Source of the DNA: a virus
Reading direction: 5' to 3' (one strand)
DNA length: 51,875 nt
IMG/VR virus record: IMGVR_UViG_3300038420_000034
A program made the position numbers and the translations under genes. Each line of letters opens with the position of its first letter. The first letter of the stretch is position 1. Below the pieces are notes generated by a model. It did no database searches, had not been told where the DNA came from, and worked only from the letters and a program-made list of their open reading frames with translations. Positions 3,714 to 25,687 of the stretch are shown here, one piece after another.

Positions 3714-3716
3714 AGG

Positions 3717-4748: not shown

Positions 4749-4753
4749 GGGTC

Positions 4754-5770: not shown

Positions 5771-5775
5771 GGCCT

Positions 5776-6810: not shown

Positions 6811-6815
6811 AGCCT

Positions 6816-7874: not shown

Positions 7875-7892
7875 ACCTAAAGGCCCACCAGG

Positions 7893-8303
7893 TTACTCGT
7901 TCTGGGTGATGGTCAGGGATGAGCAGGTGACCGACGCGCCCGACGAGACCGACGTTGAGTTGATGATCAAGTCAGCCCCGCTGCCACTCGCACCCACCGT
8001 GAAGTCACAGACAACGGCCGTGCCGGAGGTAAGGGCCCTGGCAAACGTGGCCACGCCCGTGTATATCGCCGTGCCACCCGTGATGGTCCTGGCCGTGATG
8101 GTGCTGCTCGTGCTGGCATCCGACCCAGGGATCGTGAACGCCGTGGCGTCAAACGTCAACGTCGCCAACAGGTGGTTGCCACCCCCTAACGCCGTGTCCG
8201 GTGTCGTGGGCTGGGTGCCACTGTAGATGTTGATGGTGCCTCCATTACAGAGGGCTGCGATGGCGGCCAAGGCCGCCTCTCTTGTTGCTGCTGCCGAATA
8301 CAT
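7893..8303 (-). CDS. hypothetical structural protein (136 aa from Met at 8303)
   Basis: Track ORF 7893..8342 trimmed to the internal ATG at 8303, which has an AGGAGA SD 8 nt upstream and removes the overlap with the upstream gene. Thr/Ser/Gly-rich. Confidence 0.5.
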   Translation of the reverse strand: MYSAAATREAALAAIAALCNGGTINIYSGTQPTTPDTALGGGNHLLATLTFDATAFTIPGSDASTSSTITARTITGGTAIYTGVATFARALTSGTAVVCDFTVGASGSGADLIINSTSVSSGASVTCSSLTITQNE

Positions 8304-8314
8304 AGTTTTGTCTC

Positions 8315-8740
8315 CTAACCAATCTCTGCTATCACCGTCCAACCCGTGGCAGTGCCCAAGGCCAGGACGTTGAATCGTATCTTGTCACCGCTCGTCACCG
8401 TTCCCAGTGAAGGGCTGGTCGTGACACCCTCATAGGCGCCTGACCCGATAGTCACTGTCCCTATCGTTGCCGCTGAAAAGGCGCCGGTGCCTGACGACTT
8501 TTCAAACCTGACCGATGGCGAGCCACCAGCCACGCTCACCCTAAACACAAGCCGACGAATGACCCACACCAGTGGTGACATCCCATCGGCCGGACTATAC
8601 GGCACCAAGACCTCCGCCACATCAGGCCCGGTGGCTATTGGCGTATAGGCCGCGCAAAGCAACATCGACCGACCATCAACGGGCACGACCCCAACCTTCC
8701 AGTTAAGGGCCTGCAACCTTGAGATCGTCTCGACCAGCAT
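8315..8740 (-). CDS. hypothetical protein (141 aa)
   Basis: ORF between the giant protein (7-nt gap) and the 7893 gene. Confidence 0.5.
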   Translation of the reverse strand: MLVETISRLQALNWKVGVVPVDGRSMLLCAAYTPIATGPDVAEVLVPYSPADGMSPLVWVIRRLVFRVSVAGGSPSVRFEKSSGTGAFSAATIGTVTIGSGAYEGVTTSPSLGTVTSGDKIRFNVLALGTATGWTVIAEIG

Positions 8741-8747
8741 GCGTTAA

Positions 8748-11700: not shown

Positions 11701-13853
11701 ACCCAGCCTGTCGTGCCAGAGACTCCAGACAGTGAGAGGACCTGCCCAATGGTCAACGAAGACAGGGTGATCGTGTCCGTCGATGCCCCAGTATACTGCT
11801 CAGCCGTCCACACCCGGTGAAAGGCCACGTTGCGGTTGGGCTCCTGAGAGAGCACACCAGCCCACGTGCTGTTCGACCCAACGATCCCATTCTGAGTTGA
11901 GACCACAACCCGGCCATCAACCATCACCGGCCAGCCTTGGCAGCCCAACAGCCATGGGACGGTCGGAACAGACCCACTGTCAAGGCCGACGTCATCTATC
12001 CGTGGGTCACCGATGACGTCGACCTCGTTCATCAGCAGCCTGGTCGACTCACGCTCAAGGAGGTTCGATGCCAAGGCCAGGCCGCTGCCAAGAGAGACCC
12101 GGTCAAGGTAGACAAAGCTACTGTTGCGGTAGGCCTTCATGGCCCACGACACCCCGGCTGGGGTCAGCACCATCGACGGCCACCGGCCCTGTGGGACAGT
12201 CCTCTGAACAGGAGTCCGAAACTCAACCACCGACTTGACTGCCGTCCAGATCCTAAGGTCGCGGATGGTGAATGTCGTGGTGGTCTGCCCACCCACCACG
12301 ATGGTATCTGGGGCGCCCAGGGCAAAGCTGGTAGCGCAGGGACCGGCTGTCCATACTGGCGATGCATCTGGGTCAGTCGACCGCCACAGGCTGACCGAGG
12401 CGATGGTGGACCCATCATAGACAAGCCCAAGAAGGTAGTCGGTTGTCAGGGAGATCGTGGTGCTGGCCTGCACCACCCAAGGGGTCACATACAGCACACC
12501 AGCCGCGGAGAAAGACTGGACCGTGTCCGCCGCAGCTGGCCAGCTTGGGTTGGCTGCCACCGTCGACTCACCCGCCGCCACAGGCAAGACCCTGACCTCG
12601 AGCGTCATGACCCCCGTCCCAACTGCATAGTTGACAACCACCCAAAGTGGCCCAAGGCGAAGCAGGGTGGTCGTGCCATCGGAACCTGAGATGTTTAGCC
12701 GAGGCGAGAACCTAAACATCACCGTGGCCGGGCCATCTGGAAGCTCGTCGTGCATCTGCAGCGTGATGCTCTTCCCACGTGGCACGTAGAGGGCCCAGCC
12801 CCAATCCTTGATCAGCTGCCGGTCAGTGTTGAGAAACTGACTGAGGACACCCTGCCCACCCCACACGGCCTCGTTGACCACCATGGCCGACTCAGGGTGC
12901 TCGTTGAACGGCCACCACTCCCAGAGGTCGGCGTGAAAGTCGTCTGAGAAGAAGCCCTGCGGGTCAGCCACCAGCACGCCATAGACCAGCCCTACCTGGA
13001 CAAAGGTGTAGATGGTATAGCTTGAGTCAAGGTCTGGGGCCAGCCAGTTAGGGGCCACCGTAAACGTAGTCTTGCCCGCCGTAGTAGCTGTGTTGGCTAT
13101 GATCACCCTGACCTGGCCGGAGCCTAAGCCAGAGTTGAGCTTGACCAGCCAGCCAACGTAGGCATTGGCCACCACCCCAGTCAAGGTAGCATCACGAAAG
13201 GTTGACACCCCAGCCACCGTCGCCCCATCATAGACCAGGCTAGTCACGCCTGGCTTTAGGGCAAAGCAGCAGTCACCGAACTCATCAACCTGCCTGAGTG
13301 AAAGCTGGAGCGGCTCGATGCCGGCCTGAGAGCAGACGGCCGACACGAGCCATGGGGTATTGCCCTGGTCAAGGACAGTTGGCCGACGCACGATGACCTT
13401 GGCCTTGGCCAACCCGACAAGCCTGAAACTCTCGGCCAGCCTGGCATCACCAAGGCATGTCAGCGACCGGCTCCAGGGTGACTCGTCGATCAGGCTCCCA
13501 TCGACATACAGGCTGCTGTCGGCCCAGGTCTCACCATAGTAGTCCTGACTAGGTGACTCGATGATGGTCTCTTCAGGGAGGCCAAGGCTCTTTTGGTCCG
13601 ACGGGGCCAAGGTCCTAAGGAGGGCATCCTGGTTGGTCCGGATGACCTTCGTGGAGAGGTCTTGCCAGATGGCGATGATGTCAATCCACGCTGGGACCTC
13701 AGGCGGGACGTTTGCCACCCAGTTCCCCGTGTCCGTGTAGAGGTCGAGGGTGAGCGCGACAATCGAACCTCCTTCGGTGGGAATTTGGCCCGTATAGTGG
13801 ACCAAGTTGTGGTTGGTCGCGTCATACTCGCCCGTGAAGATGATCTCAGCCAT
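8748..13853 (-). CDS. giant virion structural protein (1701 aa), putative tail fibre/adhesin with Ig-like beta-repeat regions
   Basis: 5.1-kb uninterrupted ORF. Extremely T/V/S/G-rich C-terminal half, typical of Ig-like/beta-sandwich repeats. AGGAA SD before the start at 13853. Confidence 0.7.
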   Translation of the reverse strand: MAEIIFTGEYDATNHNLVHYTGQIPTEGGSIVALTLDLYTDTGNWVANVPPEVPAWIDIIAIWQDLSTKVIRTNQDALLRTLAPSDQKSLGLPEETIIESPSQDYYGETWADSSLYVDGSLIDESPWSRSLTCLGDARLAESFRLVGLAKAKVIVRRPTVLDQGNTPWLVSAVCSQAGIEPLQLSLRQVDEFGDCCFALKPGVTSLVYDGATVAGVSTFRDATLTGVVANAYVGWLVKLNSGLGSGQVRVIIANTATTAGKTTFTVAPNWLAPDLDSSYTIYTFVQVGLVYGVLVADPQGFFSDDFHADLWEWWPFNEHPESAMVVNEAVWGGQGVLSQFLNTDRQLIKDWGWALYVPRGKSITLQMHDELPDGPATVMFRFSPRLNISGSDGTTTLLRLGPLWVVVNYAVGTGVMTLEVRVLPVAAGESTVAANPSWPAAADTVQSFSAAGVLYVTPWVVQASTTISLTTDYLLGLVYDGSTIASVSLWRSTDPDASPVWTAGPCATSFALGAPDTIVVGGQTTTTFTIRDLRIWTAVKSVVEFRTPVQRTVPQGRWPSMVLTPAGVSWAMKAYRNSSFVYLDRVSLGSGLALASNLLERESTRLLMNEVDVIGDPRIDDVGLDSGSVPTVPWLLGCQGWPVMVDGRVVVSTQNGIVGSNSTWAGVLSQEPNRNVAFHRVWTAEQYTGASTDTITLSSLTIGQVLSLSGVSGTTGWVVGDRVRFISNESPSGGAFFDATIVSSTSFQVVDIAGSVTSSTWRILYRAIAWEIKAVSVLNSDGTNSAVLVATQVASGGRTMHLVDGGGYLLTVGLDGTISRGVSAGMPWSTLFLYTSSTTVVDLGASTSTTLLSSWVDSNSFGLGISTPATDQRGSLTFYMPAALAAGPYRLTLDAGNVGQVPKDFAGLNVEVTIGQVMSFPMVVTGTGLVNPRGTVTYDFELSEAVGSGWLLEISWGGKLNATQQNVSYALAIYGVVVERVLPTLYRVDSPTTLMPLDTAEGDSLPNSVPGGWVGIVNWDGSISEWVHESDPATRILPDGGLSGPSPWGAVTQAIRTPASVLSESVTGVTVRRREDILPVAVPTMPPGTVQSFFAGGVLTVSPLGPGSFSLAAGTIIGGSFTPFGGSTPNQGSTIVYQVSGVSNATSLVWSFWDGTVVVTDASVAQQAKVANTGGSLSVTVTAVDDLGRSVSQTVVTTVNQAPQVLSLGVSNNDMAPGYSTVVTVTAKDPDSSPGGSITVSIGSATPQVITSVVSGHVQGTVTFNLTITETADLTLTLVDNYGATASMLVSFRVVTSQPVVVAVTAIPPDITIPPTVVGTPVPITIPTVVTLTAVALDLDGYDIESFSWQLLKVNGWATDQYLPGTTQAINGGAAQNVLVVDMAGQSPGTLKAVVVVTTTIGKTGTGSVDIIVAQDSDPVVDFFHVEPLSGSGPVTAGQPAIISVTVTSPAGMAMAYAWTFTNPVATTRVGNPVIVTPGPASAIITGSVVVTDVLGASTTVTIPPVIISSPLSVNAVLGAQFTYVLTAMGAAPVAFTALQVPPGMTLVGNIISGVPTVAGTFQIQVTATDTGGKTDTRTIYVTVTAGNVPLAPMNLLVKGSSFPTYRSGDSIPVTWMQADQATSTVLKFYVLGSQTTMLSVTLRPGVNSYLLSNDDLVAAFTAQDAYASTGYQGAFVVRAFASNGVNLSSNYVEIAVDFLT

Positions 13854-13942
13854 TACGTTCCTAACAACATCCTCAGTTCTTCAAGAAAGAACAGGAGGGT
13901 GAACTTTGAATGGCTGAACTAGCCGATCAACACGGCCTGAAG

Positions 13943-15196
13943 TCATTCGGGAAGAGGATTTTCCTCACTCTCAGGGTCGATCATGACCGACGGCTTCTTC
14001 GGCTCCTTGGCTGGGGCCTTTCCAGACAGCTCTTGGATCTTCCGCCACTTCGATGGTGACAGCCTCTGATATGCGTCACCATGGGTCAGTTGAAACTTGA
14101 TCAGGTCAGGCCTGGCCGTGTAGAGGTCCATCAGGAGGTCATCATCCAGGTCGTTGATGCTGAAGTTGTTCCCCTCAAGGTAGCTGTGCTCACCTGTCAA
14201 GCCCTTGATTATCGGCTGCTTGAGCAGCTCCACGATGGCCGGGTGATACTCTTCATCTGGCTTTTTGTTAGCCTTGCCCTTCATCTCCCCAAGATGGCCT
14301 TGTGGAGTAATGATGAACGTCAGCTTCGGCTCAAACAGGCCGATGAACTTGGTCGATGGCGCACGGTAGGAGATGAGACGGTCCTCCGGCCTCGAAGACG
14401 CGCCACCCACGTTTCCGCAGTGACTCATCAACTTGCCCTCGTATGAGTCACCACCAGCGTCAAGGATAACCCACTTTGTGCCATCGGGGAACTGGACGAT
14501 GGGCTTGCCCTCAGGCAGCTTCTCGATGGCCTCGATGGCATCGCCGATGGAGTTCAGGTCACGGTAGACGTCGTCGGTCTTGCGGTCATTGCCTTGGGCA
14601 TCGACATACTTCATGTTCCTCAGCCCGGTGGCCACGGCGATGGCGCCTCGCATTGGCATGAGCTCCGCCACGCGCTGCTCAATCTCACGCCAGCCACAGT
14701 TGCAGTGGGCGTGGGGCGCGTTGGTCGAGGCAGGGCAGTCGGCACCGTGGCCATCGCCTGCCCCCTCACGGCCACGGAGCAAGACACGGAGGACCCGAGG
14801 GTTCAGCTTGGTGACATCCAGGTTGCCAAGCCTGGCCACCTTCTCGTTGAGGGTCTTGTAGACGGCCAAAAACTGGCCGGTGCCCTCACCTCCAGGGGCC
14901 CGTGGGTCAAAGAAGAAGATGGCCTCCTCAACCACCCGGTCCATGGTATAGCCACGGGCCTCAAGCTTCGCCTGGGCCCTCAGCCACTTTGGGTCTGGGT
15001 CACCCTCCTTGTCCATGCTCATCCAGATCCCAGTCCGCTGGATGATGCGGGCCACCCAGAAGCAACCGTCACTTGACTGGATGACCTCCCTTACCTTGGT
15101 GAACAGCTCCCTGACGAGGTTCTTCTCCTCCTCACATAGGTCGGCCCACCACTGGGAGGTCTCAACCAGCTGCAACATCTGTTGTTGCCTACCCAT
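13943..15196 (-). CDS. hypothetical protein (417 aa)
   Basis: AGGAGG SD 7 nt before ATG at 15196. No motif I can name. Confidence 0.6.
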   Translation of the reverse strand: MGRQQQMLQLVETSQWWADLCEEEKNLVRELFTKVREVIQSSDGCFWVARIIQRTGIWMSMDKEGDPDPKWLRAQAKLEARGYTMDRVVEEAIFFFDPRAPGGEGTGQFLAVYKTLNEKVARLGNLDVTKLNPRVLRVLLRGREGAGDGHGADCPASTNAPHAHCNCGWREIEQRVAELMPMRGAIAVATGLRNMKYVDAQGNDRKTDDVYRDLNSIGDAIEAIEKLPEGKPIVQFPDGTKWVILDAGGDSYEGKLMSHCGNVGGASSRPEDRLISYRAPSTKFIGLFEPKLTFIITPQGHLGEMKGKANKKPDEEYHPAIVELLKQPIIKGLTGEHSYLEGNNFSINDLDDDLLMDLYTARPDLIKFQLTHGDAYQRLSPSKWRKIQELSGKAPAKEPKKPSVMIDPESEENPLPE

Positions 15197-15812
15197 GGTG
15201 TAACCTCCTGGCGATCTTCATCTGGTGTCTCAGGACAAGCCTGGCACGCTGGGTTAGGGTCTCGCGGTTGATCGTCTGGCCCTCTGGCGATGGCGCGATC
15301 TGAGGCTCTTGGGCAACGTTGAAGTCGCCCGCCTCAAGCAAGATGTTGACAATGTCTACCGGGTCGTCCACGGCATCAAGAACCTGCCTGGCTGTAAAGG
15401 CCGAGTCGATGATGCCACGACTAGGCGGGCTTGGTGGATCTTCATCGGTCCACCGCATCAGCCCGAACTCGTCTTCGTGCGCCATGACATAACTAGTGGT
15501 GTCAAACTCAGCCCTGGCTGAGAACCGGGTGCCCTTTGGGACGTGGAGCGCTGAGAGGTAGGGCTCCTTGATGACCATGCCACCACTCGGCTCCATGGGG
15601 TCTTCACCCATGTAGTAGAGCTGGCCGTCCTTGAGCCCATAGAGGAAGTAGGTGAACATGTCACGCTCAATGCCGTCGACACGCAGGAAGTCCCACATCT
15701 CCGAGCGGTCTTTACCAATAATCACCATGCCGTCGCCATCGTCAACCACGGGTTCAGACCACTTTGCTCGGATAGACCACTCCCGACCGTCGATGTTTAC
15801 CTTAAGTGGCAT
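15189..15812 (-). CDS. modular-family protein (207 aa; SRGIIDSAF...ARQVLDAV unit)
   Basis: Contains the ...SRGIIDS...ARQVLD... and C-terminal ...QMKIARRL... elements shared with the 15.8-25.7 kb family. Confidence 0.55.
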   Translation of the reverse strand: MPLKVNIDGREWSIRAKWSEPVVDDGDGMVIIGKDRSEMWDFLRVDGIERDMFTYFLYGLKDGQLYYMGEDPMEPSGGMVIKEPYLSALHVPKGTRFSARAEFDTTSYVMAHEDEFGLMRWTDEDPPSPPSRGIIDSAFTARQVLDAVDDPVDIVNILLEAGDFNVAQEPQIAPSPEGQTINRETLTQRARLVLRHQMKIARRLHHG

Positions 15813-16464
15813 GACCGGCCCTCATAGCACTGGAGATCTTGCCACGATTAACCTTGATGATTCGACGCCTTAGCTCGGCATATTCCTCTGGGTCAGCAAG
15901 CACGTAATAGTCATGGCCTCCTCCCTCAACCTTCACGACCTTGTCACCCGGCTTGATATATGAAGAAAACGAGGCCAGTTGATCCGCCATTGAGCGGTAA
16001 ATCCTCTGAGACGTCGAATCGGATGAACTAACATACCGAAAATCATTGACAATGGGCAGAGCATCTTCGGTTTCCACGTTGAACGTCTCGACTCCAACCA
16101 TGCCAATGGGTGGGTTATCAACTGATTTTACCCAAGCCTTAGCCCGTGCTATGGCCTTCATCTTGACGGTTTCTAGCTCCTCGGCAAATTTTACCTTGAT
16201 CGCATCTGACAAGACCGGGTTACCCAATGAAGACATCCCACGATTTAGAGATGTGACAAAAGCAACCTGTTCACTGGACATCGGCATAGACGCCTCAAAA
16301 CTTCTTGACTCGCCTCCAGACAAAAATGCCGTCGTCGTGCACCTAAAAATCTTCTTTGAAAAATCCACCTCGGCATAGAAATCGACCTTGGGCTTTCCAG
16401 GATTTCCGACTATATATCGAGGCATTTCAAGCAGTAAAGAATCGATGATATTTCGTGACTTCAT
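15802..16464 (-). CDS. modular-family protein (220 aa)
   Basis: Starts MKSRNIIDSLLLEMPRYIVGNPGKP. Ends GDKVVKVEGGGHDYYVLADPEEYAELRRRI...SSAMRAG. Both match module ends found in the larger paralogs. Confidence 0.55.
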   Translation of the reverse strand: MKSRNIIDSLLLEMPRYIVGNPGKPKVDFYAEVDFSKKIFRCTTTAFLSGGESRSFEASMPMSSEQVAFVTSLNRGMSSLGNPVLSDAIKVKFAEELETVKMKAIARAKAWVKSVDNPPIGMVGVETFNVETEDALPIVNDFRYVSSSDSTSQRIYRSMADQLASFSSYIKPGDKVVKVEGGGHDYYVLADPEEYAELRRRIIKVNRGKISSAMRAGHAT

Positions 16465-16982
16465 GCAACTCTTTCGCCAACAGGGCCCCTGTGCGTGCGG
16501 CAGATGGATCTTGAGTATAAGCCCCTGTCTTTAGTGGTTGAATCGCAATTGATTATGCCAGAATCTCTAAAATCATGATGAATCGACACGCCATTGAGTC
16601 CAAGCGACTTTATCCTATGACAGTTTGGACACAAACACTGACGATTAGCAGCTGAATTACCACCGCCGTCAGCCACTGGAATAACGTGGTCAATGTCAAA
16701 AAACAATGGATCTTTACAAGATCGTTTACACCGAGCGCACCTCCAACCGACATTAAGAAGTGGAAGTCCACATATCTGGTTAAGCAACTCAATCCTAATT
16801 ACGGTCGAATATCGGATTGTTCGGCCAAGTTTTTTCTGAAAAACGATCCACTTAACCTTTTCCATCCTAACTCCAGAACCCGTATATTCTCTGACAAATT
16901 CTGGACCATAGATTTTCGAATACTTAGCCAACCTAAGCGCTGATTTACGCCTGAACTCGATAATATATTTTTGAGTCTTCAT
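16461..16982 (-). CDS. HNH endonuclease (free-standing homing-endonuclease-like)
   Basis: CARCKRSC...DIDHVIPVADGGGNSAANRQCLCPNCHRIK = HNH motif with the Zn-binding C pairs. ATGA-type 4-nt overlaps at both ends. Confidence 0.8.
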   Translation of the reverse strand: MKTQKYIIEFRRKSALRLAKYSKIYGPEFVREYTGSGVRMEKVKWIVFQKKLGRTIRYSTVIRIELLNQICGLPLLNVGWRCARCKRSCKDPLFFDIDHVIPVADGGGNSAANRQCLCPNCHRIKSLGLNGVSIHHDFRDSGIINCDSTTKDRGLYSRSICRTHRGPVGERVA

Positions 16983-18025
16983 CGAGTCAGAGAATCAATA
17001 ACGGCCCGGCTCTCAGGAAGCTGCTCGTCCTCACCACTGGTATCAAAATCCCACGGAAGTTCATGGACCTCATGCTCTCCTTCACCGGGTTGAAGATCGT
17101 GGTGAAGGTCCATCATCCACTTAATTGAATGACGTGGCCTTTCGATAGCATGTGAAGCACTACTGTGGTGCAACGCGGGTGTTGGCACCCCATGCTCAAA
17201 CACGTAAAGCCGTTCCTGGTTGAATTTCGTGATCTTGCACTCCGCGCTAGTGTAGCACTGCCTCACCTGTGATAGGTGAGAGCCCGCATCGAGACAGCTT
17301 CTGACAACCTTGGAAAAGCTGTTGTTGGAGGCGTCAACCTCCTCTTGCGTGGCCCTGATGCCAAACATGGCTGCCTCACCAACCTCACTGATGAACATGC
17401 CGCTGACCAACCCGGTCAGCTTGTGCCGCTTCGCATAGGCATCAGCATTGCACCAGATGAAGAGCCCCTCTTTCTGGCTAAGCGCTGGGCCGAACTTATC
17501 GCCGATCAAAAAACCGGCCCCGAACAGGCCCGTTGGGCAACCGTGGCCAAGCATGTAGACCCGTGGAAATTGCTTGATGGTGGCCAACAGCTCATCCTCA
17601 CCAATGCGGCCGGAGATGACAGGATAACCGTGGCCTTCGTAGATTGGCCTTAGAAAGTCAGTCGAGCGGTCGTCAAGGTGGATGACCAGAGTGTCAGGCT
17701 GTCGCAAAAACTTGCGGCGACTTGCCTCATCGACAACGACTCTGGCCTTTGAAGCTTGACGCATGACTGAATACGTATGAGCCCGCATCGATGCTTGGAC
17801 CTCAGCAGTCTTGGGATAGTAGGCGTGGGCGTATCCTTTCTGAGAGAAGTTGGAGTGCTTTACTGAAGATGGCCCTTTATACACCTGACCGTGTTCGTGC
17901 ATGGCCTTCAAGGCCTCTTCCATGCCATTGACATACGGCCTGAAATTGATCGATGACAGACCATGGCCACAACCAAGTTTTCCATTGGCCTCAAGATATG
18001 TGGCTATTGCCCGGTCGAGTGTCAT
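16979..18025 (-). CDS. hypothetical protein (348 aa) ending in the family motif ...ESRAVIDSLTR
   Basis: Long clean ORF. C-terminus carries the xSRxVIDSL element that begins the gene immediately downstream of the HNH insertion. Confidence 0.6.
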   Translation of the reverse strand: MTLDRAIATYLEANGKLGCGHGLSSINFRPYVNGMEEALKAMHEHGQVYKGPSSVKHSNFSQKGYAHAYYPKTAEVQASMRAHTYSVMRQASKARVVVDEASRRKFLRQPDTLVIHLDDRSTDFLRPIYEGHGYPVISGRIGEDELLATIKQFPRVYMLGHGCPTGLFGAGFLIGDKFGPALSQKEGLFIWCNADAYAKRHKLTGLVSGMFISEVGEAAMFGIRATQEEVDASNNSFSKVVRSCLDAGSHLSQVRQCYTSAECKITKFNQERLYVFEHGVPTPALHHSSASHAIERPRHSIKWMMDLHHDLQPGEGEHEVHELPWDFDTSGEDEQLPESRAVIDSLTR

Positions 18026-18058
18026 AACACAGAGTCAATGACAGTCTTCACTCTCGGT

Positions 18059-20011
18059 TCATCCATTTTTCCAAGCATCAGGGTCGACGCCAAACTCACC
18101 CTCGCCACCCTCAGGCTCTGGCCCTGGTTCTTGCTCTCTGAACGTCCCGTGACTCTCGCGCTCTTCATTCTCCATGTCAGCCTTCAGCTCTGCTGCCATC
18201 TGCTTGATCAACTTCTGGGCCTCAGGGCCACCCGCTTGGATGGTCTTCATCGTGGCGTTGAACTCATCTTTGGGAAGCTGGATAAGCTTGCTGTAGAGGT
18301 GGGCCGTGATCTCGTCCTCATCCTGGCCGATGGCCGCTACAAACCGCTGCCAAAGCCCGCGGCCCATGATCGGATACGCGGGACTGACAGACCAGTTTGC
18401 CAAGTCAGCCTTGTCAATGACCTCCTTGGCCTTCGATGGGTCAGACGGCAGGCCCTCATAGGAGATCAGCTCCAACAGGCCCTTAGTCAACTCCTGCACC
18501 AGCATCGGAAAGATCATTGCCCTGACCTTGATAACCGGGACCTTGTTCTCGTCCGGCTCAAAGTCTAACTCAGCTGACCCTCCTGCGGCCTCAGGAGTTT
18601 GAGCGGCCATCGATACTTGACTGTCGCCCATGGCAAAATAACCGATCTCGGTCCCGGCCATGGCCATGCCATAAAGCGTGGGCAGGTTGGGGTTGATCTT
18701 GGCGAACCTCTTGTTGAACAGCTGGTAGGCGTAGTTCTTCGAGACCGCCCCACCAGCAATCATCGCATTGATGATCCGACGTTTCATCACCTCGGGGTCG
18801 AAGCCCTTAAACTCCTCAGCAGCCTTGACCTCTTCGGCCTCTCCTGGGCCTTCGGCCTCCGGCTCTTCACCTTCTGGCTCTTCACCTTCTTCGCCAGGTT
18901 CTTCCTCAGGCTCTTCATCGCCACCGATGCGGATGTTCTCAAGCTCGCCGCTGACACCGAGCTTGGCATCAATCTGAAATTCTCCCGCCTCGTATGGCTC
19001 TTTGAACTTCTTGAACTCCGGCTGTTCAAAGATCAGCTCAATGGCAAGCTTCTCCAATGCTCGACGATAGGGTCTTTCCATCTCCATCGCATCACGGATG
19101 GCCACCATCATAGCCTGGTAGATTGACCCGATGTTAAGCTTAGCCTCTTCACCATGGATCCTGTTCAGAAACGTGACCAACCTCTGAAGCGTGTCCTTAT
19201 ATTGGCCCGACTCCGGATAACCGCCAAGGTCCATGGGCATCTCCATCAGAACCTTATCAATTGCTTTTCGCGCGCTCATGCTTTCTCGTTTCGTTTTCTT
19301 CAGCCGCTGCTGTAACAACTGGCGGAGCCACTCACGTTCAAGCGGTCGCATGTCAAATGGAGTCCCGTCCGAGTGAAGCCACTCAAGCTTAACCGTCCTC
19401 CAATCAACGTGACACTGGGTCCCGGCTATCCTGATCAACTCACCATGCACACTGTAAGCCAGGTCTGGAATACCAGCGTGCAATCCAGGGTCAGCGTGGC
19501 CAGTTATCCAATTTCGAAAATCTGTCAAACTAGTCAGCGAAATTCCAGAGGCCGACTTTGTCACTGAGATGGGCTTTCCACTGGCCATAGCCGTGACCCT
19601 GACATGGAGGTCATCTGTGCCAGACTCACCCAGCCTCTGCCGAAGCACGTCCTTAATCCGATCACGCTCAAGAACCCGCATGTCCCATGGGCTGCCATCG
19701 GCATGGACCCACTGAACACTCCAATAGGCTGACACGATCCTATATTGCGCATCTTTGAACGCCTCAGACTCGTGGTCTTCCAACTTAGGGAACATCTTTG
19801 TCAACTTGTCAATAAACTTACCCGCCGCTATCCCGTCCATCAGGTCATGTTCCTTCCTGATGTTATACACACTGGAATAGTTGACGGGCCAGTCTCGAAC
19901 CTCGGGATATGTCAAGTTGCCAGTCGGCACGGTAACCGTAAGCTTAATGGGCAAGGCCGGTTGTGCCGGGCTTGCAATCGTGGCGCTGGCCTTGGCAAAG
20001 AGGTCTTTCAC
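18059..20011 (-). CDS. modular-family large protein (650 aa) with acidic E/P-rich tract
   Basis: Two xHxDG[ST]P[WF]DMR.LER units. SARKAIDKVLMEMP unit. GGDEEPEEEPGEEGEEPEGEEPEAEGPGEAEE low-complexity tract. N-terminus MKDLFAKA... is paralogous to the 646-aa neighbour. Confidence 0.65.
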   Translation of the reverse strand: MKDLFAKASATIASPAQPALPIKLTVTVPTGNLTYPEVRDWPVNYSSVYNIRKEHDLMDGIAAGKFIDKLTKMFPKLEDHESEAFKDAQYRIVSAYWSVQWVHADGSPWDMRVLERDRIKDVLRQRLGESGTDDLHVRVTAMASGKPISVTKSASGISLTSLTDFRNWITGHADPGLHAGIPDLAYSVHGELIRIAGTQCHVDWRTVKLEWLHSDGTPFDMRPLEREWLRQLLQQRLKKTKRESMSARKAIDKVLMEMPMDLGGYPESGQYKDTLQRLVTFLNRIHGEEAKLNIGSIYQAMMVAIRDAMEMERPYRRALEKLAIELIFEQPEFKKFKEPYEAGEFQIDAKLGVSGELENIRIGGDEEPEEEPGEEGEEPEGEEPEAEGPGEAEEVKAAEEFKGFDPEVMKRRIINAMIAGGAVSKNYAYQLFNKRFAKINPNLPTLYGMAMAGTEIGYFAMGDSQVSMAAQTPEAAGGSAELDFEPDENKVPVIKVRAMIFPMLVQELTKGLLELISYEGLPSDPSKAKEVIDKADLANWSVSPAYPIMGRGLWQRFVAAIGQDEDEITAHLYSKLIQLPKDEFNATMKTIQAGGPEAQKLIKQMAAELKADMENEERESHGTFREQEPGPEPEGGEGEFGVDPDAWKNG

Positions 20012-21948
20012 GACTCGTATTCCCTCTCTCCCCTCATGGCCTTTGACAGCTTCTGACGAGTTGACAGTGTAATCTGACGCTGAAATGCCTGCTCCTCATC
20101 TGGGTTAAGCAAGAGATAGTAGGTCCAAGGGTGGTCTTCACCCCTGACCTTGATAACCCTGTCACCAGGTCTGTGGGCCTTGTTGATCAACGCGGCCATC
20201 ACATCAGCCGAGGTATGGTTGGCACGAGTTCTGACAAACCTGAAATCCTTGATCCACTGGAGTGACGGGCCACTGAGCCTGACCTCCTCAGGGCGCCTGA
20301 CCCGGATGGTCTGTGGCCGGTTCTTATCGTTCTTGTCAATCCAGGCCTTGGCCCTCTGCCCAAACTTGAACTCAACATCGTCAAGCTTGCCAGAGGCCTT
20401 TAACTCCTTTTCTAACTCATTGGCAATCTTGCACCTATCCACGTGGGCCTGCACCGCATGCCATCTTACGGCCATCTCCGGTGGCAGTGGCTCAGAATAC
20501 AACAGCCAACGTCGAGCCCCATTTCCAGCCATGATGGTGCCATTGCAGCTAATCTCTGGGGTTATCGAGTTGACATAAGCATGACCGCCTTTGACAACCC
20601 CAGAAGACTTGCCATACTTTGGTTTTCCAATGTGATACTCTGGAGACTCCACCAGCCTGTCAATGACCTGCCGTGCCTCGCCGATCCCGCGTCTCATAGC
20701 CTGCCTGACCTTCCTGCGTTCGTATGGCCTGACATCGTAGGGTGTGCCGTCCTTGTGAACCCACCTGAGAAACTTCACACTCCTGAACTCAGGCATGTCA
20801 GCCCGCAAAATATCATTGATGAGCTGAGCATCTTCAGGATCGGGGATGGTTAACACCGAACTCCCATAAGAAGACAACGGCCAACCATCCGTAACATGAT
20901 AGGGTGGGCCAAAGCTGAAACATGACCCAACATGAAAGTTAAGCCAGCCAATGACACCATCCCACTCCACATCATGCGGGATATCGATACGAACAGTAAA
21001 GGCCACCTCGTGTGTCTGATGTCCCGGATATACTCGGCCTATCTCCCACGAACGTTTGAACTGCTTAGCCTTGTGAGGGTTCATCCTCAGGATGACCTCA
21101 CACTCCGCATATAGGTCAGGCGGCCCAAGGACACCTTTAGGGTCAAGCTCGTCCTCGCCAATGTTTATCCACTTAGTCGTCATGACATCCTTAAGCCGCT
21201 GACACTCAAGTGGTCGAACATCGTATGGCTCTCCACCAAACTTGATCCACTCAAACTTGGCCCTATCCTTGTGATACTTGAGAACATCCGCCATGTAAAC
21301 CACCACACGATGAATAGCGGGCCTAGTCAAGACAGGGTAGGTCCGCTTGACGTAGTCAACCAAAGCCCCAATCAGTGGGTTGAATATCCGGCTGTCTATG
21401 TAATACTCCTGGGGCCACCGCAATCGCCCGGTCAACCAATCTTTAAGAGTGTCCCACAAGACACCCTTCGTCGAAACAGTGGCCTTCGCCACCAACTCCA
21501 CCCCAGTGCATGAGTTTGGGATGTTGATGGTCACCCTCATGTAGAGGCCTTCAACCTCATCGATGACCTGCCTTGCCAATGACTCAGCCGTGGCATCGAT
21601 GCCACGGGCCATCGCCTGACCTACACGTTCACGCTCGAGTGGCCGGATGTCGTATGGAGAGCCGTCAGAGTGAAGATACTCAAATTTAGCCTGTTCCCAG
21701 TTTATCCGATGAGCATCTTTGAAGCCCGCTTGATTATTAAACTGGCTTCTAACCGAGTTGTAAACTTCAAAATCCATCATCTCGATGGCAGGCCTCTGGG
21801 AACCTGAAAAATTCTTGGACCAACTCCGAACATCGTCCCACGACACCTTCTCTGGAACTTGAACTATGTGAGAAGCCTTGTCAAGACCTGCCAGGCCTGC
21901 CTGGTCGTAGACCACAGGAACCGTGACCTTGACAAAGAAGTCCTTCAT
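20008..21948 (-). CDS. modular-family large protein (646 aa)
   Basis: Three DG(S/T/E)PYD(I/V)RP(L/Y)E units. Two ARQVID units. C-terminal YYLLLNPDEEQAF...SKAMRGE module. Confidence 0.65.
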   Translation of the reverse strand: MKDFFVKVTVPVVYDQAGLAGLDKASHIVQVPEKVSWDDVRSWSKNFSGSQRPAIEMMDFEVYNSVRSQFNNQAGFKDAHRINWEQAKFEYLHSDGSPYDIRPLERERVGQAMARGIDATAESLARQVIDEVEGLYMRVTINIPNSCTGVELVAKATVSTKGVLWDTLKDWLTGRLRWPQEYYIDSRIFNPLIGALVDYVKRTYPVLTRPAIHRVVVYMADVLKYHKDRAKFEWIKFGGEPYDVRPLECQRLKDVMTTKWINIGEDELDPKGVLGPPDLYAECEVILRMNPHKAKQFKRSWEIGRVYPGHQTHEVAFTVRIDIPHDVEWDGVIGWLNFHVGSCFSFGPPYHVTDGWPLSSYGSSVLTIPDPEDAQLINDILRADMPEFRSVKFLRWVHKDGTPYDVRPYERRKVRQAMRRGIGEARQVIDRLVESPEYHIGKPKYGKSSGVVKGGHAYVNSITPEISCNGTIMAGNGARRWLLYSEPLPPEMAVRWHAVQAHVDRCKIANELEKELKASGKLDDVEFKFGQRAKAWIDKNDKNRPQTIRVRRPEEVRLSGPSLQWIKDFRFVRTRANHTSADVMAALINKAHRPGDRVIKVRGEDHPWTYYLLLNPDEEQAFQRQITLSTRQKLSKAMRGEREYES

Positions 21949-21957
21949 CGCCCATGG

Positions 21958-22236
21958 CTAAAAGCCCGAGATGCCGGCTATAGGACCTTTTGCCAACTCG
22001 GTGGCCTTTGCCTTGGGTCTCGGGCGAACGCCCGGCCTAGGTGTGAACTTCCACGGCCGGACGCCAGGACGCCTCACCGGATCAGGTGGTCTCTGAGGCC
22101 TGGTTGGCGTTCGAACCGGCGTTGGGGTAATGACCGGGACTGGCCCGGAGCGCCCAAAACCAATGTTCCGGTCGAAGCATGGAACTCCGGCTACCCCGGT
22201 GAACTCGTCGATGACCTGTCGTGCTTTGCTGCTCAT
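21958..22236 (-). CDS. small modular-family protein (92 aa) starting MSSKARQVIDEF
   Basis: N-terminal ARQVID unit followed by a P/R-rich tail. Fits the gap between neighbours. Confidence 0.4.
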   Translation of the reverse strand: MSSKARQVIDEFTGVAGVPCFDRNIGFGRSGPVPVITPTPVRTPTRPQRPPDPVRRPGVRPWKFTPRPGVRPRPKAKATELAKGPIAGISGF

Positions 22237-22238
22237 AA

Positions 22239-23348
22239 TTAACCTTCCGCAAAAATTGGGTTTCCAGGAGTCAGTCCAGCCTTTGGCCTTGGGCTGACAG
22301 TCTCTTTAGGGTTGAACCGCCGCCGATATCCAGCCTCAAATGGAGAACCTTTAACTGCTTGCCAGAGCTTGGGGTGGTGCCGGTTGTAACGCAGCGCATA
22401 CTCATACGCCGTAAATGGCTGCCGCAAGACCTGGTCCAGCTCAACAACAGCGTTATTGGAAAAGGCGTAGGCCGGCTTCGGATCATGCTCTATCTCGGCA
22501 TCAATAATTTGTCGCGCATTCATGCCTAGCCTAAGTAGTCCTGATTCACCCACCACCCGACCGTGGATAACCTTCGGCCTACCGGCTGAGATACGCTTTT
22601 GCATGACCCGCTTGAGGTGGTCAGCCTGGAGCGGCCGAACATCATAGGGCGTGCCGTCCTTGTGAACATAGTCAACAACACCTACCACCCCGATCCCAGG
22701 GTGAGGCTTGTGAGAGGCCTCAACCTTGGCCTTGAACTCTGGGTGTTGGTCGGCAATCTCACTGTTCCACCACTGTTTCGGGCCTTCACTCGTATACCTG
22801 GCCCGCATATACCCACCAATCATCTCAAATGGGACATGGTCTGGAACTGGCACGGTGACATCGAGCTCATTAAAGTCACTGTGGTCAAACTCGGCCCACG
22901 CTTCTTTCCCACGGGTATAGATGCGAAGCTTGACGATGGCATGCAGGCCTGGGTGAGGGTGGCTAACCTGTCTTGGTTCACCCATGTTTTCACCCAAGGC
23001 CTGGTCAATGACGCCACGGCTCTTGCTGGCCTTGGCCACGACCATCCTCAGGCACCGCCTAGCCACGTCCTCAGCATCCAGTGGTGCCTCAAAGTAGTCA
23101 GTCAACTCGACCTTGTCAACCTCCATGTCAAGGTTGGTGCTCTCCCCGTCAAACTCAGCCTTGCGGATCTCTCTTGCCTCCTTGGGATATACCTGCTCAA
23201 ACTGCTCCCACACCCGGTCTACCTTGTCATTCCACCAGGGGACCTTCACCGTCAACACGACATTTCGCCAGGCCTCACCTCGAGTCCCATGGGCCGCATA
23301 GTCTCCCACGCGGACCCTGATCTTAGCGTGAAGGTCGGGGTGGTTCAT
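22239..23348 (-). CDS. modular-family protein (369 aa)
   Basis: YVHKDGTPYDVRPLQADHLKRVMQKR. KSRGVIDQALGENMGEP. MNARQIIDAEIEHDP. Confidence 0.6.
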   Translation of the reverse strand: MNHPDLHAKIRVRVGDYAAHGTRGEAWRNVVLTVKVPWWNDKVDRVWEQFEQVYPKEAREIRKAEFDGESTNLDMEVDKVELTDYFEAPLDAEDVARRCLRMVVAKASKSRGVIDQALGENMGEPRQVSHPHPGLHAIVKLRIYTRGKEAWAEFDHSDFNELDVTVPVPDHVPFEMIGGYMRARYTSEGPKQWWNSEIADQHPEFKAKVEASHKPHPGIGVVGVVDYVHKDGTPYDVRPLQADHLKRVMQKRISAGRPKVIHGRVVGESGLLRLGMNARQIIDAEIEHDPKPAYAFSNNAVVELDQVLRQPFTAYEYALRYNRHHPKLWQAVKGSPFEAGYRRRFNPKETVSPRPKAGLTPGNPIFAEG

Positions 23349-25687
23349 GCGATCTTGGCCTCGACCCCACGCCTCATGGCCCCGGTAACCAACGCCCGAT
23401 TTGCGTCAAGCACACGACTCTTGAACAGGGCCTTCTCCTTCTGGTTCATCAAGACATAGTATTCAAAGCGGACGCCACCCTTCGAGGACTCAGGGCCAAG
23501 GAGCCTCACCAACTCATCCTCAGGCTGCTTCAGCTGGGCAAATGCGATGGCATCTGCCACCGACCTTGTAGAAGACCTGGCGTGACGAATGTAGCGAAAG
23601 CCTTGGATAAGCGGCTTGATGTCGAACTTTACAAACACCCGCTTGATGCCCTTCATCTTCACGAACTGTTGGCCGGCCTTCTCTTGGTCTATCCAACGCC
23701 AAGCATCATTGGCCGCTCTCCTCGCCAGCCTCTTATACATCTCCGAACTGTCGATGGAGTTCATGACCTTCTTCCTGAACTCCTCATCATGCCGATACCA
23801 GTCATGTGGGTGGGCTGCCTTGGCCTCCTGCCACTCCCTGCGTATCTCAGGCGAGAATGGCTCGGTGGCGACAAACTGCCTGTTGGTCCCATCTGGCAAG
23901 ATGGCGTAGACCTTGACGCTAAACCCAGTCCCACTGTAGACGTCACAGTTGACCGAGTATCGCTCCTCCGGGACGACCTTTGGTCCCGATGGCCTTCCAG
24001 TGGTATACTGTGGCATCTCAACCAACAGCTCCTCACCTAGTGGAGGCTGCTCGGCCGTCTCACCTTGCGGGAAGTCTAGGCCTTGCAGCTTCTGGCTTCG
24101 CTTATCTGCGGCTGCCTCCACGTTCTTCCTGACAACCTCCCGCATGATGTCCTCCCACTGCCTCTTGGTGCAGAGGACGTAATACAGCCCGCAGAGCATG
24201 CCCAGCCACTTCATCCTGACCTGGTGAAGCTCCTCATCCGACTGCTTGGTTGACACCAAGGCCAGCAGGTTCTCAAAGTTGTTGTAGGCCTCAGAGCTGG
24301 TCCACTTGACATCCTTGAACAGCTCGGGGGCGCTGTGGTATGAGACGTTGACGATCTGCAGCGGGTCGGCCCTGAACGTATTGACCTTGTTCCTGCTGGC
24401 CCACTCCCTGGCCGACGAGCTAAAGTCTCCCGTGTAATAGTAGGGTGACTCAGCCAAGCTATCAATGACCCCACGAGACCGACTCATGGCCTTCGACACC
24501 TGTCTCTTCCCAATAAGTTGGATGGCTTGCATTAACCTTACCTTCTCCTCTGGGTTTACAAGCACGTAAAATCCATGTTCATCATGCTGTGCTTGCACGT
24601 TGAGCATCTCATCTTCAGGCCTGCGCAACAATGAAAATGCCACAAGCTGCTCTGGCCTTGACCAGTTTGGCGTAAATCGATAGGGTTCAACCAACTTTCT
24701 CATGACCTCTTGACTGCCATCAATAACCGATCCAGCCGGAACAGTTACCTGCTTGACCTGCGCCAGTGGAACTACCGATTGCCCTGGCTCCATGTTTGGT
24801 CCTGGATAATCGACTCTTCCAGTCAGGTCTTGCCTGAGCACGTGGATCGGCATCTCACTGATAAGCTGAGAGTCAATCACCGACCTGGCCTCACCGACCT
24901 TGCCCATAAGGAGACTCCACGCGGTGTCATGCGCCTTTCGATACTCAGGGTGCCTGAAGCCACCAAACCCATGTTCCCTACCCCAGACGTATGGCGGCTG
25001 CCGCCTCTTGTAGCCAAGCACCTGTGACTTGGTGTAGCGGACACCTGGAAAGTAGTCTAGGTCGTCCTTGTGGATGGTGGGGTCGATGATGGTGCCATCG
25101 GCCGCCTCGATCCAGCCATGCTCAACCGCCACGCCATTTGACTTTAGCCTGGCGAACCCCTCGACATAGAGGTAGTCACCATCGACCTTGCTGATGCGGC
25201 GCAAGACCTTGACGCAGTTAAGCCAGCACTGCTTTGGCGAGGCGCCGAACTTGTCGCCCCACTTCCTCGATAGCTCCATGTCCTTGGCCTCATTCCTAGC
25301 GGCCGCACCCCGCTTCATAGCCGCGTCCACACAGGCTCTTTCCAGTGGCCCGATATCATACCTTGAGCTATCTTCATGGACCCACTCAACACTGCTAAGC
25401 CTGATGTCATCCACAGATTTTTCCTGGCCTTGCAGCAGGCCTTGCGTCTGCAAAAGCTTCATGTTAACGGCTGTATCCGTGGAGTCAAGAAAATCCCAAG
25501 CAAACCTCCAAGCCAGTGTCCTGCCGAAACCTGGTCGCTGGATATTTCGAATGTTCTCCCGCTCAAGCTGACCCTTTGTCTTCTGGCAGTGAAAGCACCC
25601 GACCACTGGCACATAGCCAGGGAAGTCACTCGGGTCAAGCAGCTCAAACTTTCCACCACAGGCCGGACATTTTCCAAGGTCACTCAT
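23345..25687 (-). CDS. modular-family large protein (780 aa) with N-terminal Cys4 zinc ribbon
   Basis: MSDLGKCPACGG...CFHCQ. WVHEDSSRYDIGPLERACVDAAMKRG. GEARSVIDSQLISEMP. RSRGVIDSLAESPYYYTGD. Two ...Y(Y/V)LxNxxEK...AM(S/R)RG modules. Confidence 0.65.
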   Translation of the reverse strand: MSDLGKCPACGGKFELLDPSDFPGYVPVVGCFHCQKTKGQLERENIRNIQRPGFGRTLAWRFAWDFLDSTDTAVNMKLLQTQGLLQGQEKSVDDIRLSSVEWVHEDSSRYDIGPLERACVDAAMKRGAAARNEAKDMELSRKWGDKFGASPKQCWLNCVKVLRRISKVDGDYLYVEGFARLKSNGVAVEHGWIEAADGTIIDPTIHKDDLDYFPGVRYTKSQVLGYKRRQPPYVWGREHGFGGFRHPEYRKAHDTAWSLLMGKVGEARSVIDSQLISEMPIHVLRQDLTGRVDYPGPNMEPGQSVVPLAQVKQVTVPAGSVIDGSQEVMRKLVEPYRFTPNWSRPEQLVAFSLLRRPEDEMLNVQAQHDEHGFYVLVNPEEKVRLMQAIQLIGKRQVSKAMSRSRGVIDSLAESPYYYTGDFSSSAREWASRNKVNTFRADPLQIVNVSYHSAPELFKDVKWTSSEAYNNFENLLALVSTKQSDEELHQVRMKWLGMLCGLYYVLCTKRQWEDIMREVVRKNVEAAADKRSQKLQGLDFPQGETAEQPPLGEELLVEMPQYTTGRPSGPKVVPEERYSVNCDVYSGTGFSVKVYAILPDGTNRQFVATEPFSPEIRREWQEAKAAHPHDWYRHDEEFRKKVMNSIDSSEMYKRLARRAANDAWRWIDQEKAGQQFVKMKGIKRVFVKFDIKPLIQGFRYIRHARSSTRSVADAIAFAQLKQPEDELVRLLGPESSKGGVRFEYYVLMNQKEKALFKSRVLDANRALVTGAMRRGVEAKIA

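Follow-up and report, generated by a model that had tools for sequence, protein, structure and literature searches.

The virus contig analysed here, IMGVR_UViG_3300038420_000034 (a complete JGI metagenome contig of 51,875 bp, referred to below as the window), encodes a lineage-specific family of real proteins that are under purifying selection and whose long members string recurring modules around unrelated cores, as a preliminary description of this DNA had stated. The modules are joined to one another by a single conserved junction, which consists of a helix end (R.RV..AMRRG), a flexible [LIVM]-G-E stretch, a short helix with the motif [AS]R.VID.L (the VID helix), and the sequence [LIVM]-x-E-[MSA]-P. 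Repeated gene fusions, fissions and cassette swaps within the family fall exactly at this junction, and they distinguish even strains that are nearly identical. From this architecture and evolution we infer a function, tentatively, for the VID helix as an address tag. The family genes, all of them minus-strand genes read in the frames that the preliminary description implied, are the following (g3, which lies among them, is included for orientation).

15189..15812, minus strand: g1, 207 residues; an unrelated core, inside which VID-like helices stand in tandem (SRGIIDSAF, ARQVLDAV, VDIVNILLEAG).
15802..16464, minus strand: g2, 220 residues; a standalone module B, with an N-terminal VID (MKSRNIIDSLLLE) and then MPRY...FRYV...YYVL...AMRAG.
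16461..16982, minus strand: g3, a homing-type HNH endonuclease (Pfam) between g4 and g2, outside the family.
16979..18025, minus strand: g4, 348 residues; begins with module C (..KGYAHAYYPKT..SMR), continues with an unrelated core and finishes in a VID (ESRAVIDSLTR, then the stop).
18059..20011, minus strand: g5, 650 residues; two copies of domain A (residues 7-129 and 134-240), VID (247-257) and the g5-core (246-650).
20008..21948, minus strand: g6, 646 residues; three copies of domain A (residues 3-120, 134-263 and 278-424), two VID helices (125-133 and 425-434) and module B (436-646).
21958..22236, minus strand: g7, 92 residues; an N-terminal VID and then a Pro/Arg-rich tail (RPGVRPW..RPGVRPRPKA).
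22239..23348, minus strand: g8, 369 residues; a degenerate domain A (residues 5-107), VID, domain A (134-255), VID and a variable C-terminus that finishes in a Pro/Arg tail.
23345..25687, minus strand: g9, 780 residues; a Cys4 ribbon (residues 7-35), a DGxP unit (92-130), an unrelated core, VID, the C-terminal subdomain of module B (mc, 332-409), VID, a second core and a full module B (558-780).
46570..47079, minus strand: gC, 169 residues; an N-terminal VID with an AMR helix directly behind it (MQARQAIDFAHLWRDYQRDRVRRAMRHEEP), the rest being an unrelated core.
50919..51389, minus strand: gA, 156 residues; VID at the N-terminus (MDARTTIDRVCE), a core rich in Cys and His, and ..QMRRGG at the C-terminus, these end motifs being its sole resemblance to the family.
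51389..51874, minus strand: gB; VID (KAIIDMVCE/SPEY) and the C-terminal subdomain of module B. The N-terminus runs off the end of the contig, and the open reading frame (ORF) extends upstream as KAIIDMVCESPEY, so that gB too carries VID.

The eight consecutive member genes that had been described form a real run, but g3, within it, is an endonuclease and not a member. Likewise, gA and gB, the further members placed at 50919..51859, do carry the motifs, although that list was incomplete, since gC is also a carrier of VID and an AMR helix. The observation that the VID and AMRRG elements mark protein ends was borne out: VID stands at the start of g2, g7, gA and gC, and AMRRG at the end of g2, g6, g9, gA and gB. 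On the strength of motifs alone we considered enzymatic assignments for two of the unrelated cores, a transglutaminase/papain-like core in g9 (QCWLNC...EHGWIE...IDPT) and a caspase-like core in g4 (MLGHG...IWCNAD). Neither was supported, as a rescan of each core alone at E<=10 was empty.

A profile search in all frames recovered exactly seven copies of the DG[ST]P-YD-RPLER unit (domain E 1e-18 to 1e-20), two in g5, three in g6 and one each in g8 and g9, with none in other frames or genes; an eighth, degenerate DGxP copy is present in g8. The pattern [AS][RK].[VIAT]ID occurs 14 times, always in minus-strand coding frames and never in plus frames, as compared with an expectation of 0.19 from residue shuffling (maximum of 2 in 2000 shuffles), and the motif GDxVxKV..YYVL..AMRxG is present in five copies (g2, g6, gB and two in g9). 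Identical residues are specified by the same codon in only 37% of cases for the DGxP unit and 39% for VID, matching the expectation from codon usage; the conservation thus acts on the protein. Comparison with a sister strain gave dN/dS values of 0.11-0.18 for g4, g5 and g6. The earlier estimate of at least seven DG(S/T)P units holds, and the frames had been correctly called.

In one respect the units proved to be other than had been thought. The DGxP and YYVL elements, which had been taken for independent units of ~45 residues, form instead the conserved C-terminal portions of globular domains that are larger. Alignment of the regions upstream of each DGxP unit revealed a domain of ~105-145 residues, which we designate domain A. 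It begins with [DG]L[HY].[RK]V.V..P and finishes with a strand, a DG.P.D turn and a helix ending in AMRRG, so that DGxP...AMRRG is its C-terminal strand-turn-helix. Seven of its copies are good and one, in g8, is degenerate; they are located as follows.

20677..21117, minus strand: domain A, an example copy (g6_A3), ending in WVHKDGTPYDVRPYERRKVRQAMRRG.
19625-19993, 19292-19612, 21589-21942, 21160-21549 and 22584-22949, minus strand: further copies of domain A.
23028-23336, minus strand: the degenerate copy of domain A in g8.
25298-25414, minus strand: a partial copy of domain A.

An AlphaFold2 model of domain A, made from the seven window copies, had a mean predicted local distance difference test score (pLDDT) of 71 and a predicted template modelling score (pTM) of 0.61. 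In this model, the order of elements is a hairpin, two helices, a strand, a long helix and the VID helix. The second module, module B, is ~220 residues in length and ends with YYVL...AMRxG. It makes up the whole of g2 and, in full length, the C-termini of g6 and g9; its C-terminal subdomain of ~85 residues (FR[YF][VI]...GD.V.KV...YYVL.NPEE...AMRxG) occurs alone in the middle of g9 and in gB. The AlphaFold2 model of module B had a pLDDT of 72, and it should be noted that both models are of moderate confidence, having been built from alignments of 5-7 sequences. The N-terminal subdomain of module B gave weakly scoring matches to the alpha-beta-beta-beta-alpha fold of double-stranded RNA-binding domains (dsRBDs) and their relatives (Staufen dsRBD5, TRBP, R2D2 and the uS5 N-domain), at 6-16% identity and with a model of only moderate confidence; this would be a resemblance of fold and not membership of the dsRBD family. 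A third shared N-terminal module, module C (..KGYAHAYYPKT..SMR), is present in g4 and in relatives. Domain A and module B are two small globular modules that were previously undescribed.

The VID helix is a separable amphipathic helix of 10-15 residues that is found at N-termini and at domain junctions, with a mean hydrophobic moment of 0.44 vs a background of 0.28. It was modelled as an unpacked helix: pLDDT was <50 over residues 1-23 of g2 and 36-64 in the last part of the domain A model, whereas the adjoining domain helices had values of 80-90. At least six different cores are preceded by VID, namely domain A, module B, the g5-core, the g7 tail, the gA core and the gC core. Some homologues of module B begin exactly at MP[QE][FY], without VID, and several standalone ones begin with VID; VID is thus an optional extension at the N-terminus. 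The possibility that the Met of E-M-P serves as an internal translation start was considered and set aside, as there is no convincing Shine-Dalgarno sequence upstream. The positions of the VID units are given below.

20647..20676, minus strand: an example of the VID junction (ARQVIDRLVE/SPEY), with IGE just before it.
15396-15422, 16426-16458, 16982-17011, 19241-19273, 21550-21576, 22195-22224, 22989-23021 and 22488-22517, minus strand: VID units in the g1 to g8 region.
24854-24889, 24449-24478, 24017-24040, 47047-47073, 51351-51383 and 51845-51874, minus strand: VID units in g9 and beyond.

The VID helix is bracketed on both sides by sequences containing Glu. On the upstream side, where the preceding domain ends, there is [LIVM]-G-E, which is 6-fold enriched in the family, with 8/10 occurrences at junctions; downstream there is [LIVM]-x-E-[MSA]-P-x-[YF]. 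By a reading of the listed sequences by eye, [LIV]-x-E follows 11/14 VID units, a figure that represents a motif match only. In relatives, the helix equivalent to AMRRG finishes with ..R.RV..A[LM]GE[SA].

Comparison of the window with related contigs (designated here by L numbers) revealed how freely the modules have been recombined. In L001, L007, L008 and L009, which are syntenic with the window, domain A, module B and VID occur in differing orders. In the window the g5-core is joined to two A domains; L008 and L017 (P0003) have it joined to a single A domain, and L001, L007 and L009 have it as a standalone, VID-initiated protein. The g7 protein is free in the window and is fused behind two A domains in L001. 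Differences of this kind are also present among L016, L017, L020 and L008, which are near-identical strains of the window phage and in which blocks of 99-100% identity alternate with blocks of 75-88% identity and with unrelated DNA. Two breakpoints between such blocks were placed as follows.

24017..24040, minus strand: breakpoint 1, inside the junction (..LGEELLVE/MPQY) before the last module B of g9, with identity starting at ..LLVEMPQY.
22558..22583, minus strand: breakpoint 2, directly after the last helix of the second domain A of g8 (..RPKVIHGR).

At the first of these, the last module B of g9 is in L016 a separate gene that starts with VNAKTLIDSLLVEMPQY and is preceded by an endonuclease with HNH_3 and AP2 domains. 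Past the second, L016 and L017 have a GNAT domain (Acetyltransf_1, 23.7 bits vs a Pfam cut-off of 20.7), then VID and a Pro/Arg tail, and the C-terminus in the window differs. Homing endonucleases flank two independent family junctions, in that g3 and the HNH_3+AP2 endonuclease of L016 (1862-2437 in that contig) adjoin them. The g3 gene is intact in the window, and 258 nt of it (window 16504-16761) are missing from L008 and L017, the remnant in L008 lying at 3393-3613. We considered g3 as the cause of the split between g4 and g2 and set this aside, since the sister strains keep the deleted remnant at the same place and either order of events would fit.

Database searches indicated that the family is narrowly distributed, being present in a few contigs of uncultivated jumbo phages. 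The family proteins had zero matches in Pfam, PHROGs and NCBIfam, the HNH domain of g3 being the only match in the run; g9, g4, the g5-core, domain A and module B had no significant sequence or profile match in the PDB, and BFVD gave no match for the family. For domain A, neither sequence nor fold led to a curated family in Pfam, PHROGs, NCBIfam, PDB or BFVD. The statement that the units correspond to no known family is thus upheld in all five libraries. A tblastn search with g6 against 50,697 GenBank phage records and a megablast search of the locus against GenBank phages were likewise without a match, and the g5-core gave weak matches only, to two uncultured phage records of ~640 kb. In a word-indexed protein search g6 retrieved only itself, and the unit alignment retrieved nothing, its 49-residue profile probably being too short for the method. 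The DGxP pattern did recover one 230 kb IMG/VR contig (L001) and four JGI metagenome contigs, the latter through a degenerate DNA pattern of the unit. The profile of module B matched 45 clusters at E <=1e-3 among 1.84 billion protein representatives; none of the 44 representatives scanned has a Pfam domain. These other module B proteins are mostly on 2-kb contigs, and their genomic context was uninformative.

In L011, a 24-kb high-GC contig, the stretch at 5961-14371 holds a protein in which the C-terminal subdomain of module B is repeated four times. Near it are an AAA ATPase, a Multi_ubiq protein, and a protein of 1213 residues that has an E1_FCCH (ubiquitin-activating) domain.

The tag itself extends beyond the family. 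The last 405 residues of g5 (the g5-core) have ~30 homologues on jumbo-phage contigs, where they form a standalone protein of ~430 residues, and most of these begin with A-E-R-I-V-x-x-I-L-E-[AM]-[PG], for example MASKAERLVNHILEAGIDPGDYPDW or MSHANRIVDLLLEMPIDVGDYPDF; neither domain A nor module B was found near the g5-core in these distant phages. With a matrix built from the N-termini of g5-core homologues, 9/109 proteins in four distant loci had a match to the tag that outscored the 99th percentile of internal windows, and the match always lay at the N-terminus. The tag-bearing proteins include two neighbours that are not homologous to the g5-core, a g7-like Pro/Arg protein directly upstream of it and an acidic protein directly downstream, as well as small proteins farther off. 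An address or recognition peptide is favoured by these observations, because a helix intrinsic to a fold would not be common to non-homologous neighbours. To judge from these sequence matches, the tag is older than the family.

Some other features of the distant loci may be recorded here. The g7 motif RPG[TV]RPW..(x)..RPGV.PRPKA is kept directly upstream of the g5-core (L003 9626-9994, L005 9438-10001 and L010 9423-9995), and the g7-like gene in distant jumbo phages is sometimes extended by an extra C-terminal domain. In L005/L006 (3075-8786), a DNA polymerase A of 1903 residues matches Hom_end and LAGLIDADG_3 weakly in the part that separates two Pol A segments, and it probably contains an intein.

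With regard to its setting, the locus probably belongs to an uncultivated jumbo phage. Relatives of the window sit on contigs of 220-250 kb, one of which is listed in IMG/VR, and the window has the gene content of a large phage, including a thymidylate kinase, a Dam methylase, a DHFR-like ORF and a PurZ-type adenylosuccinate synthetase. The principal neighbouring genes are the following.

2700-7874, minus strand: five tandem paralogues of 337-352 residues, with N- and C-termini near-identical across all five; the single member that was scanned hits phrog_9600 ("tail assembly protein", 1.1e-28).
8748-13853, minus strand: a protein of 1701 residues with an Ig-like He_PIG domain, directly upstream (in the direction of transcription) of the five paralogues.
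13943-15196, minus strand: g0, 417 residues, without a database match.
33031-35664, plus strand: an MVP-like protein of 877 residues (Pfam MVP_shoulder 9e-19; vault repeat Vault_3 1.6e-9).
36016-37056, plus strand: a PurZ-like adenylosuccinate synthetase (phrog_1211, 1.9e-42).
50398-50922, minus strand: a dual-specificity protein phosphatase (PF22741 3.5e-18), which also matches polymorphic-toxin and "Swiss Army Knife" PTPase models.

The family genes, the 1701-residue Ig-domain protein and the five paralogues of tail-assembly type form a single tight run on the same strand. The g0 gene, with its conserved ..KLM[SG]HCGN.GG.. motif, is kept beside the family in L001, L007, L008, L009 and L017. 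Band_7/SPFH proteins are encoded 4-5 kb from the g5-core in distant relatives (L002 15683-16954 and L003 14583-15767). The PurZ-like gene suggests that the genome is substituted with 2-aminoadenine (Z), and genes with a dGTP_diPhyd_N domain are present in relatives (L003 20264-20722 and L010 17921-18541). The start of the phosphatase gene overlaps the stop of gA, and the N-terminus of its product looks like a lipoprotein signal (..LAGC).

On analogy with known phage systems, we tentatively favour the reading that VID is a CTS-like address and Glu-cleavage tag on variable cargo proteins, which would act as its polyprotein-like carriers. In phage T4, the sole feature common to the internal proteins is a 10-residue N-terminal capsid targeting sequence (CTS), which binds the prohead core and which gp21 cuts off after L/I-X-E; close phages differ at this locus (PMC3012670, PMC9026906). 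By this analogy, the VID helix would be an address tag lying outside any fold, which recruits changing cargo or effector proteins to a common partner; the most plausible partner would be the prohead core, and the proteins would be packaged and later ejected. The Glu motifs flanking VID would be cleavage sites of a Glu-specific prohead protease, and cleavage there would release the tag and separate the modules of the multi-domain proteins. A CTS-like tag is favoured because VID is a portable amphipathic tag with hydrophobic-x-Glu on both sides, in a hypervariable locus that acquires enzymatic cassettes. As in T4 IPI, IPII, IPIII and Alt, a short (~10 residues) amphipathic N-terminal peptide, which by motif match ends in hydrophobic-x-Glu, is found on otherwise unrelated proteins (PMC3012670, PMC9026906), the locus is hypervariable between close strains and the cargo can be enzymatic. 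Unlike the T4 CTS, with which it has no sequence similarity, VID is also internal and C-terminal, and its carriers are large multi-domain proteins with repeated domains of their own.

Several observations weigh against this reading. There are no head genes in the window or in the relative loci retrieved, and packaging, cleavage and a prohead protease are without evidence here. Distant phages place the g5-core between DNA polymerase A/DnaB and an NAD-dependent ligase, that is, in a replication context. In contrast to the T4 CTS, VID also occurs at C-termini (in g4 and in a 107-residue protein of L008 and L017); the [MSA]-P-x-[YF] after the putative cut is conserved, which a bare protease site would not need; and the Gly-Glu-Ser/Ala of the junction could be mere helix capping residues. 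The structure models, furthermore, are of moderate confidence (pLDDT ~71, alignments of 5-7 sequences).

A possible but rather doubtful alternative is that the family arose by ordinary paralogue expansion, with VID, [LIV]GE and AMRRG being structural linker or helix-capping residues that were inherited along with the domains and have no part in addressing or processing. AMRRG does lie within a confidently modelled terminal helix, and helices are commonly C-capped by a Gly that follows a hydrophobic residue; moreover, shuffling at linkers is to be expected if only in-frame, domain-preserving recombinants survive. VID, however, is present on unrelated cores and exactly at the N-terminus of non-homologous neighbour genes in distant phages, and most g5-core homologues on ~30 jumbo-phage contigs keep it at the N-terminus; it is also optional for module B and was modelled as unpacked.

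Somewhat less likely still is an uncleaved docking helix, in which the acidic, amphipathic VID would bind a common hub or the basic R.RV..AMRRG helix of a second family member and so drive assembly head-to-tail or onto a scaffold, such as a fibre or tail complex whose genes lie just downstream. VID, rich in D/E, and AMRRG, rich in R, have complementary charges, the two helices are back to back in gC, and the cluster adjoins fibre- and tail-like genes. Yet the C-terminal helix of relatives ends in ..A[LM]GE[SA] and is not basic, the AMRRG helix is buried in the fold, and the g5-core and g7 carry VID without AMRRG; no partner was identified. The two functions suggested in the preliminary description have thus fared differently. 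Head-to-tail docking is the weaker idea for the reasons just given, whereas a reused recognition or processing site is the best fit to a flexible and optional tag that is found on unrelated cores, usually ends in [LIVM]-x-E and has a relative at the head of non-homologous neighbour genes in distant phages.

We regard it as improbable that VID serves to direct proteins to some non-capsid compartment inside the cell, such as a replication factory or an MVP/SPFH-like cage. The g5-core is within the replication module of distant relatives, the window encodes the 877-residue protein with MVP shoulder and vault repeats, and the Band_7 proteins of relatives are 4-5 kb from the g5-core. The MVP-like protein, however, is ~8 kb from the VID carriers and on the opposite strand, with no co-variation or adjacency in the window and no evidence that would link the two. 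VID resembles the encapsulation peptides of microcompartments in being an amphipathic terminal helix on a flexible linker (moment 0.44 vs 0.28; low pLDDT), and tags such as AERIVNHILE presumably look like the amphipathic peptides by which Pdu and Eut enzymes are encapsulated through their N-termini, a likeness that we take to be one of generic amphipathicity. Among the window proteins scanned, a subset of its ORFs, there was no Pfam match to BMC-H/P shell proteins. A wider version, in which VID and its relatives (A-E-x-I-V-x-x-L-L-E) would be a general cargo-addressing peptide of a jumbo-phage clade, directed to a non-capsid compartment built by the phage, for example an MVP/SPFH-like cage, is speculative and quite unlikely; if true, such a clade-wide peptide would be the phage counterpart of encapsulin and microcompartment targeting peptides. 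Finally, the idea that the units are DNA-level recombination or gene-conversion sites that drive cassette exchange, to which the strain breakpoints in junctions and the homing endonucleases adjoining two of them might point, is largely refuted by the codon identity of 37-39%, the lack of DNA repeats and the ~60% nucleotide identity of the units.

Other known systems resemble the family in part. Both phiKZ and SPN3US have large paralogous families of head and ejection proteins that are processed after Glu (PMC10052503), and the propeptides of SPN3US paralogue families A and B are cleaved by gp245 (PMC10052503, PMC9026906). The present family is like the phiKZ inner-body and SPN3US families in its giant-phage setting and its paralogues in a row, cleavage of N-terminal propeptides after Glu being known in those systems. 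It is unlike them in showing no homology (PHROGs, Pfam and tblastn against GenBank phages), in having [LIVM]-x-E and not A/S/G-x-E, and in having as its tag a defined conserved helix where theirs is a long and diverse propeptide. The shuffled multi-domain architectures and, in a strain variant, the enzymatic GNAT domain are reminiscent of the polyvalent proteins of phages and conjugative elements (Iyer et al. 2017, PMC5512222); in contrast to those proteins, the window family has no known conflict or effector domains by Pfam, and most of its domains are new repeats that do not look enzymatic. In polymorphic toxin cassettes (e.g. VENN in CdiA), a short conserved peptide similarly marks the place where variable modules exchange, but secretion and immunity domains are absent here (Pfam), the junction is not conserved in DNA, and the locus is that of a phage and not of a bacterium.

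The family is new in its parts and familiar in its probable logic. Its description defines, in an uncultivated group of jumbo phages, two domains to which none of the libraries searched holds a relative, together with a conserved peptide that is compact and has the properties of a portable tag. If VID is indeed a CTS-like tag, mature N-termini are predicted at [MSA]-P-x-[YF] and after [LIVM]-G-E, and this would be the first CTS-like address system outside the T4-like phages to be predicted from sequence alone. The tag would then mark hypervariable and probably injected proteins, possibly including counter-defence effectors (the GNAT domain being seen in one strain), and it would offer a handle with which foreign proteins could be loaded into giant-phage particles.

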